From the sequence record NC_070985.1: a stretch of 64,000 bases of DNA; one strand, written 5' to 3'. Below the pieces are notes generated by a model. The model worked only from the letters and a program-made list of their open reading frames with translations, was not told the origin of the DNA and made no database searches. This stretch comes from Escherichia phage O18-011. Position 1 is the stretch's first letter. Every line of letters starts with the position of its first letter. Below, piece by piece: positions 48,966-55,000 of this stretch. The position numbers and the translations under genes were made by a program.

Positions 48966-49264
48966 CACCGACTTATAGCCCTTGTATTTATCAGAGGGCT
49001 ATGTGAGGGTGTTCCTCATTAACTTATTAAATCAGGCATATGCCACACCGCTAGGGAGAGCTTGCTCGAACATCCGGTGTTAGACTAAAACCTGTTAATT
49101 TTCGAAAGGCTTTCCGATATGTAGGGGTACGTATTGGTTTGGGATTCAGGAGACTTCCTAGGGGTAGGGAGTCTTCACCAGTTTGTAGAGTAGGTGGCTC
49201 TATTGTAAGAGTCATCCGCTATATCAACTGGCAATAATGCCTCCACTAACAAAGAGAGATAGGT

Positions 49265-49405
49265 ATGAAAGTATCAACCAAACGTATGAACCGCCCTGAA
49301 CGTATGGATGCAGTAGCTAACGGTGCTCTGAAACTGGAAGGCTTCTGGATTCATGCAATGTCAGCCATCCGTAACAAGCAAGGTAATTGGACCTATGCCG
49401 GTTAA
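49265..49405 (+). CDS. small basic protein (46 aa)
   Basis: ATG 49265; codons typical of highly expressed genes (cgt, ctg, ggt); below track cutoff. Confidence 0.4.
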   Translation: MKVSTKRMNRPERMDAVANGALKLEGFWIHAMSAIRNKQGNWTYAG

Positions 49406-49604
49406 AACAGCCCATGTAATAGGTATGCGAGAGATCATTCGCATTGCCTTGATGGAACACACTGATCGAAACATGCAACTAACGCAAATCTCTAAGTGTC
49501 TTAATTGCTCAAGAGATATGGCTAAGGAATTAATGTTCGCATTCCTTTATAATGCAGAAGATGAGTTTTTACAAAATCGTCTGCTTGGTTTAAAACAGAA
49601 ATAA
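49395..49604 (+). CDS. hypothetical small protein
   Basis: ATG 49395 after AAGGTA within track ORF 49353-49604; followed by terminator. Confidence 0.4.
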   Translation: MPVKTAHVIGMREIIRIALMEHTDRNMQLTQISKCLNCSRDMAKELMFAFLYNAEDEFLQNRLLGLKQK

Positions 49605-49609
49605 ATAAA

Positions 49610-49641
49610 AGGCTGCCCAATAGGGTGGCCTTTGTTGTTTT
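49610..49641 (+). terminator. rho-independent terminator
   Basis: AGGCTGCCC-aata-GGGTGGCCT followed by TTGTTGTTTT; near-identical stem to terminator at 1214. Confidence 0.6.
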
Positions 49642-49685
49642 AATTAAGGGACAACTCTTACTTAAACTAACAAGAGGAAGCTCAA

Positions 49686-49862
49686 ATGTCTAAGCAAACA
49701 ATCAAGAATACACAAGCTGGTTACTCTTATGTTAACTCTCCTTGCTGTGGTGCTCGTGTTAATCTGGTTAAGGAAGAGGTCCGTATCGTTCAGCGTGGCG
49801 CTACTGTTGTTCGTTCATGCTGTGTCTGTGGTAATGACATTTTTATCAAAGGTAAAGTATGA
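49686..49862 (+). CDS. small zinc-ribbon-like protein (58 aa)
   Basis: ATG 49686 after GAGGAAG; Cys pairs SPCCGARV...SCCVCGND. Confidence 0.4.
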   Translation: MSKQTIKNTQAGYSYVNSPCCGARVNLVKEEVRIVQRGATVVRSCCVCGNDIFIKGKV

Positions 49863-50083
49863 TTATCGTACACTCTGAACCTAAAGATAATACTTTTGGT
49901 AGTCTACGTAATGGTGATGTATTCTCTCTAGAAATAGACGGGGATACAAAACCTCCTTTATACATGAAGGTTATGCACAGACATGCTATCTGTATAAAGA
50001 ATCCTGAAACAAGATTTACATTTGATAGAACTTGCCCTGTCAAATACTATCAAGCTACCTTAAATGTTAGGAGAGTAGGATGA
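49859..50083 (+). CDS. small protein family member 3
   Basis: Motifs GDVFSL, LYMKV; ATGA overlap with upstream gene. Confidence 0.5.
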   Translation: MIIVHSEPKDNTFGSLRNGDVFSLEIDGDTKPPLYMKVMHRHAICIKNPETRFTFDRTCPVKYYQATLNVRRVG

Positions 50084-50331
50084 AAAATTTCCAAGCTGCA
50101 CCAATAACTAAAGTGATTGAAGTTGATGATGTGATGATGACTGTTCCTCTGAACACTCGTTACATTGCAATTGATAAGATGGGTTATGTATGGGCTTGGA
50201 AGATTAAGCCTAGCTATAACGCATTGTTTGATGAGTTTGTTTGTACTGGTACTTACAGTCCTACATTCTTGGGTTTATTTGGAGAGTTTGAAGGTCAGTA
50301 TAAAATCATCACTCTCCCTGCTTGTGCTTGA
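50080..50331 (+). CDS. hypothetical small protein
   Basis: ORF track; start overlaps upstream stop. Confidence 0.45.
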   Translation: MKNFQAAPITKVIEVDDVMMTVPLNTRYIAIDKMGYVWAWKIKPSYNALFDEFVCTGTYSPTFLGLFGEFEGQYKIITLPACA

Positions 50332-50338
50332 GGTTAAT

Positions 50339-50500
50339 ATGTTCAAGTGGCTAAAGCGTGTCTTTCATTGTCATGATTGGAAGATTATTAATACTCGCCC
50401 TCTGGTCTATACAGATTCAGATGGGAATAATGACAAGGGCACACGTTACGTTATCCAGTGTAAGGTGTGTGGTGAAGTTAGTCATCGTGACATAATCTAA
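50339..50500 (+). CDS. small Cys/His zinc-binding-like protein, paralog A
   Basis: ATG 50339 after GAGGT; CHDWKI...QCKVCGE. Confidence 0.4.
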   Translation: MFKWLKRVFHCHDWKIINTRPLVYTDSDGNNDKGTRYVIQCKVCGEVSHRDII

Positions 50501-50508
50501 GGGGTGTT

Positions 50509-52498: not shown

Positions 52499-53006
52499 GG
52501 AGTTCATATGAGCTGCTATTCAGAGGCTGGGACGGTGAACCAGATCTCGGAAAGATAGCAGCTATGGTTTTCTTGTGGCCTATTATTGCTGTACTATTTA
52601 TAGCACTTGTAGCATGGGCTGCCCTTTGGGATTTCATCCTTCCTAACAAAAAAGTATGAGGACTTATGACTGAAGAATTTTTAAAGTGGTTTGGAGATAC
52701 CTTCAAACAATATCTATTCTCTCCAGAAGACTTTGAAGAGCTGAAAATCTACACTTGGTTGGCTTGGAGAGATAGCCGACGAGAGATGAATAAGTAATAT
52801 CGTGAAGGGTTCTTACGAGAATCCTTTGAGATAGGACTTCAGATCTCCTATCAAACTAACATTCACGTAACTAGCCCATAAGGGCGTTACCCTTTAATAA
52901 CCCAGCCCACTAAGGGGGCGGGAGTTTAGTGCTGGATTAGCATAACGCTTATTCCTACAAAGGCAACCGATTGTTAGATCTTACATGCAATAGTAATTAA
53001 TAGGAT

Positions 53007-53040
53007 AAGGGAGGATTCGTCCCCTCCCCCTATTTTATTG
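53007..53040 (+). terminator. rho-independent terminator
   Basis: GGGAGG-attcgtcc-CCTCCC followed by CTATTTTATTG. Confidence 0.45.
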
Positions 53041-53087
53041 AATCTTTATCTAAGCAAGTCTTATATAAATATTTAATTGGAGGATGT

Positions 53088-53399
53088 ATGAAAGCACGAA
53101 GAACTATATGGACTCCGATGCAGATTGAAAATCTTCGGAGACTAATCAAAGAGTACTCTGTTCAAGAGGTTGCTCAGATTATGAATGTAACGGAGAATGC
53201 AGTTAATACAGCTTGCACTAAGTTCGGTATCTCTAGAGCTGTAGTCCGAGTTAAGTGGTCTAAAGAAGAAGATCAGTTCCTTATCCGTAATGCCGGGTTC
53301 ATGTCTATTCAGAGAATGGCTGACATGCTCGGTAGAAGCTATGCTGCTGTACAGAACAGGGCATGTATGCACCTTAACATTAGCCTCAAACTTAAATAG
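53088..53399 (+). CDS. tandem helix-turn-helix (Myb/SANT-like) DNA-binding protein
   Basis: Two repeats: WTPMQIENLRRLIKEYSVQEVAQIMNVTENAVNTA and WSKEEDQFLIRNAGFMSIQRMADMLGRSYAAVQNRA. Confidence 0.4.
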   Translation: MKARRTIWTPMQIENLRRLIKEYSVQEVAQIMNVTENAVNTACTKFGISRAVVRVKWSKEEDQFLIRNAGFMSIQRMADMLGRSYAAVQNRACMHLNISLKLK

Positions 53400-53407
53400 G
53401 AATCAAT

Positions 53408-53653
53408 ATGAAGATCCTTCCCAAAATTAAAGATAAAACTGTTTCACTGGATACGATCATTCCCGGAAACCCTTTTGTAATCCAGCAAGGTTCAGCATCG
53501 CCTCAGTATTATATTCGTGTTACCAATGTGTCCAATAAGATCTCTGTCGAAGGAGGTTGGATTACTACGGTTAACCTTATGACTGGCGTTTTGGGTGTTA
53601 TGAAAAGTGATACTCAGGTTGAAATGATTCGCATGTCTGTGGTTCAGGAGTAG
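53408..53653 (+). CDS. small protein family member 5
   Basis: Motifs GNPFVI, YYIRV, VNLMTG. Confidence 0.5.
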   Translation: MKILPKIKDKTVSLDTIIPGNPFVIQQGSASPQYYIRVTNVSNKISVEGGWITTVNLMTGVLGVMKSDTQVEMIRMSVVQE

Positions 53654-53658
53654 TGTAG

Positions 53659-53907
53659 ATGAGCACCATTCACATCAAAGTAAAGCAAGACGAAGACTTG
53701 GCTATATGCGTCTCCAACCTGAAAACATCAGATGTATTCACTTTGAAAGAGTGTAAACTAGGTAAGATTTACATGCTAGCAGATATTAGCAGAAGTTGTA
53801 AGCCTGCTGTAGCTATTAATCTTGGAACTGGAGAACTTCGGACAATTGCTGGTGATATGGTTGTTGGTGAGAAGTTTAGTAAAGTTGAAATGATCTTAAC
53901 TCCATAG
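53659..53907 (+). CDS. small protein family member 6
   Basis: Motifs SDVFTL, IYMLA, INLGTG. Confidence 0.5.
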   Translation: MSTIHIKVKQDEDLAICVSNLKTSDVFTLKECKLGKIYMLADISRSCKPAVAINLGTGELRTIAGDMVVGEKFSKVEMILTP

Positions 53908-54138
53908 GAAAACAAATGAGACGTAAAGCATATTCTTATGACGATATGATTAACCAGAAAGGCTTCGGTCAACGACAGCCTGACGGTTCAATTATCTGGT
54001 TCGTAAACGGACAGAAAAAGGTAGCTAAATAAGCCCTCTTCTCTCCTCCTTTTAGTACTATGACGCCTCTCTGTGGGCGGCCCAATTTGCGTAGGGAATT
54101 CCCTCTACGCAGCCATAACTTTTTAAGGAATTTCCCCT

Positions 54139-54372
54139 ATGTCTAAAGTAAGTGCAATTGATGCAATTCGTCAACCGTTCCAGTTCCAATCCAAATCAAC
54201 CCAAACCTTCAGTGAGCCTAAGCAAATTCGCTTGGGTGGCACAGAGAAAACTGTGTTCGATCTGGCTAAAAACAAGAGCGTTACCGTAGTTGATGGTGGT
54301 ACTCTGGTTAACGTTTCCCATCGTATTCGCACTGGCAAAACCGCCAAAGATCGTGCTAAGAAAGGTGAGTAA
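54139..54372 (+). CDS. hypothetical small protein (possibly distant family member)
   Basis: ORF track; weak resemblance (IRLGGTEKTVF...VNVSHRIRTG). Confidence 0.4.
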   Translation: MSKVSAIDAIRQPFQFQSKSTQTFSEPKQIRLGGTEKTVFDLAKNKSVTVVDGGTLVNVSHRIRTGKTAKDRAKKGE

Positions 54373-54614
54373 TGAAAATAGGGAAACCAGCTAAGGATGT
54401 TCTAGCGAAGATTAGTGATATCTCTATTGGGGAAGTTTTCTCAGCAGAGCACTTTTCAAGTTACTACATGAAAATCCCTGACACTAAAGTAGAGGGTTGC
54501 ATCATCCCTGCCAACGCAGTTAACCTGAACACAGGACACCTATCTGCATTCAAACCTGATTCACAGGTTACTGAAATCAAAGATGCCTACCTCGCCTTTG
54601 GTGGGGATAAGTAG
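54372..54614 (+). CDS. small protein family member 7
   Basis: Motifs GEVFSA, YYMKI, VNLNTG. Confidence 0.5.
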   Translation: MKIGKPAKDVLAKISDISIGEVFSAEHFSSYYMKIPDTKVEGCIIPANAVNLNTGHLSAFKPDSQVTEIKDAYLAFGGDK

Positions 54615-55000
54615 AGTAACATCTATAGCCTTCTTCTGAGGGCTATGTGAGTTATTCTAACTCAACTAACCTAATCTTAATATATTTCCCGTATGGGGCC
54701 GATGCTAGGGAGAGGAGTGTTCCTCAAACATCCGTCGGATAGATATTTTAAGAGCAGGTTATCCACAGATATTGGGTAATATCTTTTTGGATTTAAAGCT
54801 TGGCTCTTTTCGGAGAGTCCTTTTTTAAATTCAATGAGAGGAAATATGTCTAAATTAGATTTAAAACTGCTAGCAGCAGCGATAGTGATTTGTGCACTAG
54901 CACTGGTAACGCAGAGAACATCTGGATTTATTCAGTGTTTCTTTTCTGGGCAATCCACTTATCAGTGGGTTATTGACGAGTGTAAACAACAGGAGTAAGT

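Follow-up and report, generated by a model that had tools for sequence, protein, structure and literature searches.

Escherichia phage O18-011 (NC_070985.1), of which a window of 64,000 nucleotides (nt) was analyzed, carries two intergenic elements, A (~48960-49264) and B (~54610-54826), which are paralogues of one structured RNA module. Together they represent a genuine and conserved family of structured RNAs that had not been described before and counts two members per genome. Element B ends in an intrinsic terminator and contains a stretch complementary to the mRNA leader of the host gene nrdD, encoding the anaerobic ribonucleotide reductase (RNR), and this antisense match is the most specific lead on function. 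The preferred reading is a composite one, held tentatively and with less than even confidence: A and B would be lineage-specific folded early RNAs, and B would be processed into an antisense small RNA (sRNA) acting on nrdD.

The module shows a constant order from 5' to 3', with an irregular hairpin 1 of ~20 bp, an alternative small hairpin 2, an AU-rich linker, hairpin 3, and hairpin 4. In both copies, hairpin 1 contains an upper stem, AUAGCC../..GGCUAU, and a lower stem in which the last codons and the stop codon of the upstream gene pair with the sequence after GUGAG. The extended helix comprises ~19 to 21 base-pair steps with conserved A×A and pyrimidine-U (Y×U/U×U) mismatches, and this irregular helix of about two turns agrees with the structural description of a T7-type RNase III site. 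Hairpin 1 of A starts within the upstream stop codon (TAA, 48963-48965), has an irregular middle with A×A and U×U, and carries the invariant GUGAG on its 3' side. Hairpin 2 is formed from nucleotides that also make up the lower stem of hairpin 1, which renders the two conformers mutually exclusive. The linker holds an AACUAAC-like sequence, hairpin 3 has 3 bp, and hairpin 4 is built from a 6-bp stem P1, a symmetric 7×7 internal loop (5'-CUAGGG(A/C) opposite 5'-(G/A)AACAUC), a stem P2 of 3 to 5 bp, and a variable loop. After this scaffold the copies diverge. In A, two hairpins follow, each of which presents UA-GGGG-UA. In B, the scaffold is followed by a segment that pairs with the linker, then by a weak hairpin, and finally by the terminator. 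No plus-strand open reading frame (ORF) of at least 40 amino acids is present in the A or B spacers. A minus-strand ORF of 54 amino acids over A (49051-49215), annotated as a hypothetical protein in some deposited genomes, was rejected as a gene because 1- and 2-nt indels occur among the orthologues.

The fold was evaluated on sequences collected from annotated phages, IMG/VR, and metagenomes, 17 distinct ones for A and 22 for B; a retrieval by the protein gp88 yielded only four loci. The model-based core alignment of 37 distinct sequences shows 95.9% standard pairs, compared to 84.6% in shuffled alignments, and a covariation score of 0.293, compared to 0.119, and neither value was reached in any of 500 shuffles. 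The covariation collapses when the partners are slid by one column. In hairpin 4, the closing pairs and all 14 letters of the loop are constant, while P1 shows up to four pair types, with 2 to 4 standard types per pair (CG/UA/AU/GU, GC/AU, and AU/CG/GC). In the lower stem of hairpin 1 of A, pair 9-50 is CG in 12, UG in 3, and UA in 2 of the 17 orthologues, and pair 7-52 is CG in 15 and UG in 2. Full-length B is paired to 99.4%, with 12 double-change pairs compared to 7.0 ± 1.5 in shuffles (reached in none of 500), and the folding z score is -5.3 for each of the full-length elements. Invariant G·U pairs (U·G in hairpin 4 of B) indicate a structure of RNA or of the plus strand, i.e., of the transcribed strand. 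The compensatory changes cover five helices, but many of them separate only three groups (A, B of Kuravirus, and B of the Salmonella phages), and the number of independent events is modest.

The support differs between individual helices. In B, hairpin 2 covaries among phages, with U-A/U-G/C-G at one pair and U-A/C-G at another (GAGUCA..UGACUC and GAGCUA..UGGCUC); together with the pair types of the lower stem of hairpin 1 in A, this gives both competing conformers some support. Hairpin 4 of B changes in the Salmonella phages from CG to UA and from AU to GC in P1 and from GC to CG in P2. The six pairs of the long-range closing helix of B are essentially invariant, so covariation neither supports nor refutes it; the adjacent helix (columns 82-85/160-164) shows two double-change pairs. 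The stem of the B terminator, extended by A-tract/U-tract pairing and followed by a U6 tail, is kept throughout the 22 B sequences and includes covarying pairs (UG/CG/GC and, in the extension, UA/CG). In the second GGGG hairpin of A, the 10-bp stem is wholly rewritten in EK010-type phages (GAGAACUCUC/GAGAGUUCUC), with the pairing kept and the loop untouched. The 3' end of A occurs in two forms: phages of the phiEco32 type (phiEco32, locus L001, 3250-3345) carry an extra structured insert of ~60 nt (GGAATAAGAGATAGCTCTAGAACC...CTGACTAGGGCTATCC), while the window shows at 49186-49240 a short hairpin, GGCUCU-AUUGUA-AGAGUC, which resembles the terminator stem of B but lacks a U-run.

Covariance model R1 of the scaffold finds two matches in the window (130 and 121 bits); the next best reaches 12.6 bits, and no other exceeds 13 bits in the 64 kb. 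The composite pattern CTAGGGAGAG-N(4-20)-AACATCCG likewise occurs twice in the window and never in 100 shuffles, and GGGCTATGTGAG has exactly two occurrences. The relatedness of the two elements, as proposed in a preliminary description of this DNA, is thus confirmed, and all sequence blocks quoted there for A and B are present (Table 1). One of them, TGTTCCTCA, had been regarded as a shared block in rearranged order. This sharing is a coincidence: the sequence forms hairpin 2 in A, whereas in B it forms the apical loop of hairpin 4 plus an arm, and the loop of P2 in B differs in almost every other phage (GUGU, ACAC, AUAC, CAG, and UAAU). The extent of ~120 bp given there describes the first 125 nt correctly. 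The actual units are larger, as the intergenic spaces are homologous between A and B, and conserved among phages, over their whole length (A to ~49185-49264 and B to 54826).

The window belongs to a podophage, a phiEco32-like coliphage of the Kuravirus type; phiEco32 itself is classified in the Gordonclarkvirinae, genus Kuravirus. A 6.6-kb query spanning both elements matches 107 phage records (SU10, NJ01, KBNP1711, phiEco32, etc.) at 80 to 99% identity. With model R1, each Kuravirus, Suseptimavirus, and Nieuwekanaalvirus locus examined yields exactly two copies, and Cronobacter phage GAP52 yields none. In the 7-11-like Salmonella phage SE131, the model matches a single copy, namely B in syntenic position, within the early half of the genome. 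B is kept in ~100 Kuravirus-group records and six Salmonella phage records. Between E. coli and Salmonella phages, B is 71 to 73% identical, compared to 24% for the adjacent family-member proteins, and another neighbor is unalignable, which places the RNA under stronger constraint than the surrounding genes. The invariant loops are also kept in the single-copy Salmonella phages; concerted evolution is therefore not their cause. A loose pattern, CTAGGGA-N(6-30)-AACATCC, gave more than 120 loci in viral contigs, and the first 100 of them (L002 to L101) contained no match to the model and were dismissed as chance. A stricter pattern in viral and metagenome contigs gave Kuravirus-group and 7-11-like contigs only, besides seven chance matches: L133, L148, and L165 have unrelated flanks, and L141, L153, L158, and L166 were taken as chance solely because of a long (38-nt) spacer.

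These data bear on the possibility that the elements are nonfunctional remnants of a duplication, or boundaries of a mobile cassette like the promoter-early stem-loop repeats of T4. The preliminary description had placed each element downstream of a family-member gene. In the window, the upstream genes 54372-54611 and 48747-48962 are indeed distant paralogues, as the protein of the former matches phrog_6570, the family of the latter, with an E value of 7.5e-9 in a PHROG profile search; BLASTP gives no pairwise alignment of the two proteins. Other genes precede the elements in other phages: B directly follows the stop codon of the preceding gene in contig L145, and the genes that precede A in L146, L149, and L161 are unrelated. 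This variation indicates an element at a mosaic junction. An A-like first hairpin of B in phages 4E8 and EK010 also fits a remnant or cassette. Duplication did occur, the copies being paralogues, but a mere footprint is unsupported, because the noncoding part is far better conserved than the adjacent coding sequence, compensatory changes keep five helices, and single-copy phages keep the invariant loops. This explanation is largely refuted and has become very improbable. As a separate observation, the first hairpin of B (ATAGCCCTYGTGAGTATCAGAGGGCTAT) in 4E8 (L128, 9010-9040) and EK010-type phages (L129, 9010-9040) resembles that of A and differs from other B copies, which suggests gene conversion between the copies.

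The most specific hint on function comes from the 3' domain of B. Its sole absolutely invariant stretch among the 22 B sequences is GGTTATCCACA, a perfect DnaA box, and for this reason B was searched against 5,426 complete E. coli genomes. In 5,423 of these genomes, BLAST places the segment 54746-54787 at one chromosomal site, with an E value of 5e-3 for a 28-Gb database in which the genomes are nearly identical; A and a third structured spacer, C, show no E. coli genome match. The site is a noncoding stretch that directly precedes the start codon of nrdD, and the match is to the opposite strand; the phage transcript is therefore complementary to the leader of the nrdD mRNA. The duplex comprises 24 uninterrupted pairs (one G·U) from about -37 to -14, or 27 pairs with one bulged A to about -10, and its end adjoins the GGAG Shine-Dalgarno (SD) sequence. 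Calculated locally, the duplex energy amounts to -49 to -53 kcal/mol, compared to -17 ± 3.6 (best, -30) for shuffled B segments. Whole-length RNAduplex calculations were discarded in favor of the local one, as long artificial duplexes score well for A too. The target is located inside the transcribed leader, with the NrdR boxes about 160 to 210 nt upstream of the ATG; relative to the start of nrdD transcription, the FNR sites which these boxes are described as overlapping are at -33.5 and -64.5.

The complementarity may follow the host to some degree. Identity runs 13 nt past the DnaA box on the SD side (11/13), and the two DNA mismatches beside the core become G·U and U·G wobbles in RNA (Kuravirus, AAGAGCAGG; SE131, AAGAAUAGG). 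These differences concern two phage lineages and are compatible with wobble pairing (A to G opposite U and C to U opposite G), which is weak evidence in favor of host matching. Leaders were taken from the best 80 nrdD loci (L172 to L251), all from Enterobacterales with no Salmonella among them, and the Citrobacter leader served as a proxy for Salmonella. The Kuravirus copies fit the E. coli-type leader (TTTTAAG and CAGAAA), and the stretch is invariant in 17 Kuravirus-group copies. SE131 shows a 19-bp run with a U·G wobble, and the 7-11-like variant L164 fits the Citrobacter-type leader (TTTATAAG.. and CAGAGG) better, with a 28-bp run and a ΔG of -60. These comparisons favor selection for host matching beyond the DnaA box, against which stands the mere 11-nt core in pSal-SNUABM-01. 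GAP52, the relative without the element, encodes its own nrdD/nrdG, while the SU10 genome paper mentions no reductase; this single comparison is suggestive of a link to host nrdD.

A different explanation operates at the level of DNA, with the DnaA box of B titrating DnaA from host sites such as the nrdD leader, forming a roadblock before the terminator, or taking part in a replication origin. The box core GTTATCCACAG is the only fully invariant stretch of the B 3' domain, and it is identical to the strongest oriC-type boxes, R1 and R4. AT-rich tracts lie on both sides, and the host counterpart is itself a DnaA box conserved across Enterobacterales. However, the box of B is single and not part of a cluster, and A has none; the host similarity beyond the box is wobble-compatible where it deviates and tracks the host type, neither of which DnaA binding needs; and the scaffold covariation with its invariant G·U pairs is a signature of RNA or single-stranded nucleic acid. 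An action on DNA appears rather improbable. On the host side, nearly all sampled Enterobacterales nrdD leaders (L172 to L251; in L171, 1501-1542), from Escherichia to Yersinia and Dickeya, contain (C)TGTGGATAACCTGTT ~20 to 35 nt before the ATG. Judged from these leaders, the site is an old, conserved DnaA box plus flank. The papers on nrdDG that were consulted annotate DnaA boxes for nrdAB only; the conserved leader box suggests an unreported DnaA control of the anaerobic RNR. E. coli nrdD leaders come in two allele types just distal to the box (L171, 1520-1556, compared to L176), and the BLAST identities fall into two bands, with 495 records at 80 to 90% and 4,928 records at 90 to 95%, which, by reference to L171 and L176, probably correspond to the strain 7/2 type and the K-12 type, respectively. 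The strain 7/2-type allele has a hairpin and a T7 run on the strand antisense to nrdD.

In the composite reading, A and B would be transcribed within a long σ70-dependent early polycistronic RNA. This RNA would be cut in the scaffold, by RNase III at the irregular helix or by RNase E in the AU-rich linker, to give the 5' end of B, and termination at 54826 would give the 3' end of a discrete B RNA. The 3' arm would then pair with nrdD mRNA and thereby alter how this mRNA is translated or how stable it is. With 24 bp directly beside the SD sequence, the duplex would most likely block initiation and provide an RNase III substrate; in the other direction, nrdD could be activated by the opening of a possible leader hairpin with an anti-SD sequence (CUUCCC). 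The shared scaffold may act as a platform for processing, stability, or protein binding, and the 3' domain of A, with its two GGGG-loop hairpins, may be aimed at a different partner.

Several points weigh against this proposal. The discrete B sRNA is putative, being deduced from sequence. In the predicted fold, the antisense stretch is mostly paired with the linker of B itself, and only UCCACAG is free. The linker thus necessarily resembles the nrdD target, and an opening or processing step is needed before pairing with nrdD, for which UCCACAG may serve as a toehold. Both the invariant core and the host site are DnaA boxes, the former of high affinity and the latter conserved to Yersinia and Dickeya, so that part of the similarity could be convergence at the DNA level. 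The Salmonella phage pSal-SNUABM-01 keeps only an 11-nt core. A benefit from repressing host nrdD is puzzling for a phage without its own RNR, and activation is possible instead. Finally, the role of the shared scaffold and of A is left unexplained by the model. A wider generalization, possible but doubtful, is a new class of scaffolded early RNAs in strictly lytic phages, in which a four-helix platform with an invariant internal loop, bound by a phage or host factor or self-processing, is cut from a polycistronic transcript and carries interchangeable effector arms. The arm of B would be antisense, coevolving with the nrdD leader and controlling anaerobic deoxynucleoside triphosphate (dNTP) synthesis in the gut.

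The scaffold may also be a pure module of mRNA processing and stability without any function in trans, with hairpin 1 as an RNase III site, the AU-rich linker as an RNase E site, and protective hairpins left behind. Its intercistronic position with a start at the stop codon, the ~20-bp helix with conserved mismatches and GUGAG on its 3' side, and the two exclusive conformers over the stop codon, by which the folding could be coupled to translation of the upstream gene, all agree with such a module, and spacer C shows a similar layout. The preliminary description had likewise favored RNA processing or regulatory sites over terminators because no T-run follows the hairpins. This is correct for the first hairpins, in which hairpin 1 leads into GUGAG, and the structure prediction proposed there as a check reveals a conserved fold on the transcribed strand in both elements; B as a whole nevertheless ends in an intrinsic terminator, 60 nt beyond the end coordinate given there. 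For a simple cut site, the 27-letter invariant internal-loop hairpin 4 would be superfluous, the conservation across two phage families far exceeds that of the neighboring genes, and the host-matching segment is not accounted for. On these sequence features, a pure processing module seems unlikely.

The genomic context raises the question of antitermination. All genes from ~42.7 kb onward lie on the plus strand, and by homology to phiEco32 and SU10, this block represents early genes transcribed by the host σ70 RNA polymerase. A is flanked by homologues of phiEco32 gp113 and gp112, and B is flanked by homologues of gp91 and gp90. The promoter scan of the window lists no σ70-like promoter within 48517-49834 or 54610-54850, and the motif tAATGTAtA of the phage sigma factor gp36 of phiEco32 is absent inside A and B at up to one mismatch. 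Strong intrinsic-terminator-like hairpins occur within the plus-strand early block on both sides of A (46145-46172, 47475-47492, 47560-47579, and 49608-49633), so early transcription must be segmented or must read through. The study of phage 7-11 describes only two early promoters and long polycistronic transcripts, with an antitermination strategy that "remains to be defined."

Against this background, A and B might be cis-acting antitermination or attenuation RNAs similar to put of phage HK022, with the scaffold modifying the host RNA polymerase or recruiting a factor for read-through, including that of the B terminator. This terminator lies only 20 nt ahead of the start codon region of the next gene, directly before its ribosome-binding site and without room for a promoter, so that the polymerase must read through it for ~20 downstream early genes. 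Further intrinsic terminators within the early block, the gap left in the 7-11 study, and the status of B as the sole noncoding element common to the phiEco32 and 7-11 groups point the same way, and put too consists of two related copies of bulged stem-loops that act independently of proteins. However, three of the strong terminators (47475-47492, 47560-47579, and 46145-46172) are upstream of both copies, so the elements are not the sole device; GAP52 has the same genome plan without the element; A in O18-011 is not followed by a U-tract terminator; no similarity to HK022 exists in sequence or model; and the nrdD complementarity is left unexplained. Such a role is considered improbable.

Table 1. 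Coordinates of the features of elements A and B in the 64,000-nt window
Feature	Position	Strand	Sequence or basis
A 5' scaffold (extended hairpin 1/hairpin 2, linker, hairpins 3 and 4)	48960..49084	+	Covariance model R1, 121.5 bits, E=2e-24
A extended hairpin 1	48964..49013	+	RNAalifold on 17 orthologues
A hairpin 1, lower stem	48964-48969 / 49008-49013		AACACC / GGUGUU
A hairpin 1, upper stem	48974-48983 / 48994-49003		
A block ATAGCCCT	48975-48982		Followed by 12-nt loop
A block AGGGCTAT	48995-49002		
A block GTGAG	49003-49007		
A hairpin 2	49005..49017	+	GAGG-GUGUU-CCUC; single-sequence fold; invariant in A, hence without covariation signal
A block TGTTCCTCA	49011-49019		
A hairpin 3	49035..49044	+	GGC-AUAU-GCC; GC/CG swaps among A, B, and EK010-type copies at 2/3 pairs
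A hairpin 4	49045..49080	+	P1 ACACCG/CGGUGU; internal loop CUAGGGA 49051-49057 / GAACAUC 49068-49074; P2 GAG-CUUG-CUC
A block GCTAGGGAGAG	49050-49060		
A block ACATCCG	49070-49076		
A 3' hairpin, first	49115..49136	+	CGAUAUGUA-GGGG-UACGUAUUG; consistent one-sided changes (UG/CG/UA, GC/GU, GU/AU/GC)
A 3' hairpin, second	49149..49176	+	GGAGACUUCCUA-GGGG-UAGGGAGUCUUC; invariant loop region UAGGGGUA; several double-change pairs
B 5' scaffold	54610..54742	+	Covariance model R1, 130.1 bits, E=2.8e-26
B extended hairpin 1	54614..54657	+	15 pairs by RNAalifold, 3 of them with double changes; 99.1% paired by pair counts
B hairpin 1, lower stem	54614-54618 / 54653-54657		GAGUA / UAUUC
B hairpin 1, upper stem	54625-54632 / 54639-54646		AUAGCCUU
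B block ATAGCC	54625-54630		
B block GGCTAT	54641-54646		
B block GTGAG (GUGAG)	54647-54651		Invariant
B hairpin 2	54649..54663	+	GAGUUA-UUC-UAACUC; alternative to lower stem of hairpin 1
B long-range closing helix	54667..54672 / 54756-54761	+	UAACCU / AGGUUA; RNAalifold and single-sequence minimum free energy; encloses hairpins 3 and 4
B hairpin 3	54688..54697	+	CCC-GUAU-GGG; CG to GC swap in Salmonella-phage copies
B hairpin 4	54699..54738	+	P1 CCGAUG/CGUCGG; internal loop CUAGGGA 54705-54711 / AAACAUC 54726-54732; P2 GAGGA-GUGU-UCCUC
B block GCTAGGGAGAG	54704-54714		
B block TGTTCCTCA	54717-54725		
B block ACATCCG	54728-54734		
B nrdD-complementary stretch	54742..54776	+	Uninterrupted core 54746-54769
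B DnaA box	54759-54767		TTATCCACA, perfect; within the nrdD-complementary stretch
B hairpin and UUUU	54767..54788	+	AGAUAUU-GGGU-AAUAUCU, then UUUU; missing in Salmonella-phage copies
B intrinsic terminator	54791..54829	+	GGCUCU 54802-54807 / AGAGUC 54814-54819, C, U6 54821-54826

Further features of the window accompany the two elements. Spacer C (52798-53040), flanked by homologues of gp101 and gp100, is a third long structured spacer with a layout like that of A and B: two hairpins directly after the stop codon, a AAACUAAC linker, a closing helix (CUAACA/UGUUAG) around a multihairpin domain, and an intrinsic terminator at 53009-53035, with a folding z score of -3.25. As a third copy it was rejected, with only 11.6 bits and an E value of 0.84 for model R1; the architecture is alike, but homology is not demonstrable. 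The gene directly after spacer C (53088-53399) encodes a small helix-turn-helix protein (sigma70 region-4-like; PHROG "transcriptional regulator, D5-like"). Between A and B lies a tRNA-Arg gene (anticodon UCU, 51182-51257); the ORF immediately before it (50742-51191) encodes an HNH endonuclease domain and is missing at the corresponding place in the phiEco32 reference. The phage-sigma promoter element TAATGTATA has perfect matches at 848, 7060(-), 7132, 17091(-), and 34117(-), including a divergent pair around 7.06 to 7.14 kb, and none close to A or B. In pSal-SNUABM-01, an annotated RNA-binding protein of the ProQ/FinO family (L123, 3701-4429) is encoded ~6 kb upstream of its B; no ProQ/FinO domain was found among ten scanned proteins of the window.

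Phages of the phiEco32, SU10, and 7-11 types are model and therapy-candidate coliphages whose early regions are labeled "genes of unknown function," with no noncoding RNA described there. The A/B module is the best-conserved feature of this region across two phage families, and its hairpin with the invariant 7×7 internal loop represents a new RNA motif. The module is a candidate for the way in which early transcripts are processed or pass internal terminators, a point left undefined for 7-11, and for antisense RNAs of lytic phages against host metabolism. The nrdD match, if functional, predicts a phenotype specific to anaerobiosis.

A and B were also compared with described RNA families and elements. 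Among the 4,227 models of Rfam 15, only tRNA-Arg passes the gathering threshold in the window; in the regions of A and B, hits with E values up to 10 are noise (mir-3012, AgrB, TarB, and SdsR), the best at 14.9 to 19.2 bits compared to thresholds of 38 to 90. The literature consulted on phiEco32, SU10, and 7-11 mentions no RNA element at the sites of A or B. The 11-nt tetraloop receptor and the K-turn were rejected by inspection as identities of the loops, not being common to A and B, as was a riboswitch-type antiterminator/terminator switch in B, because its GGGAGAG:CUCUUUU pairing in the window is not kept in Salmonella phages. The putL/putR elements of HK022 are described as two related copies with bulged stem-loops that act without proteins, suppressing terminators downstream in a manner that depends on the zinc-binding domain of the RNA polymerase β' subunit. 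A and B resemble them in design only, with two related copies per genome, irregular stem-loops, early transcripts of the host polymerase, and terminators to pass. In contrast, A and B measure 125 to 230 nt compared to ~70 nt, have four or more helices, lie kilobases from promoters and downstream of other terminators, and lack homology; model R1 gives nothing below an E value of 0.95 in HK022 and nothing at the put loci.

The early RNase III sites of T7 (R0.3, R0.5, R1, R1.1, and R1.3) are repeated mismatched hairpins between cistrons without U-runs. By description, the first hairpins of A and B are alike, being related, mismatched, exactly intercistronic, and free of a U-run; unlike in T7, they form only the first part of a multihelix module, which also includes the hairpin with the invariant internal loop and, in B, closes with a terminator. 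With DnaA boxes of the oriC R1/R4 type, B shares the perfect box with the G...G flanks of the strongest boxes, but this box is single, is located inside a transcribed folded RNA element, and shows a host similarity that exceeds the box and follows the host type. From sRNAs of the Hfq/ProQ type, B differs in a complementarity of 24 to 27 bp, longer than the usual seeds and mostly sequestered in its own fold, and in the lack of its own promoter, as it would be cut from an mRNA of a strictly lytic phage. With these sRNAs, including those encoded by phages and prophages such as DicF, B shares a target-complementary stretch, a Rho-independent terminator with a U-tail, and a target adjacent to the SD sequence.

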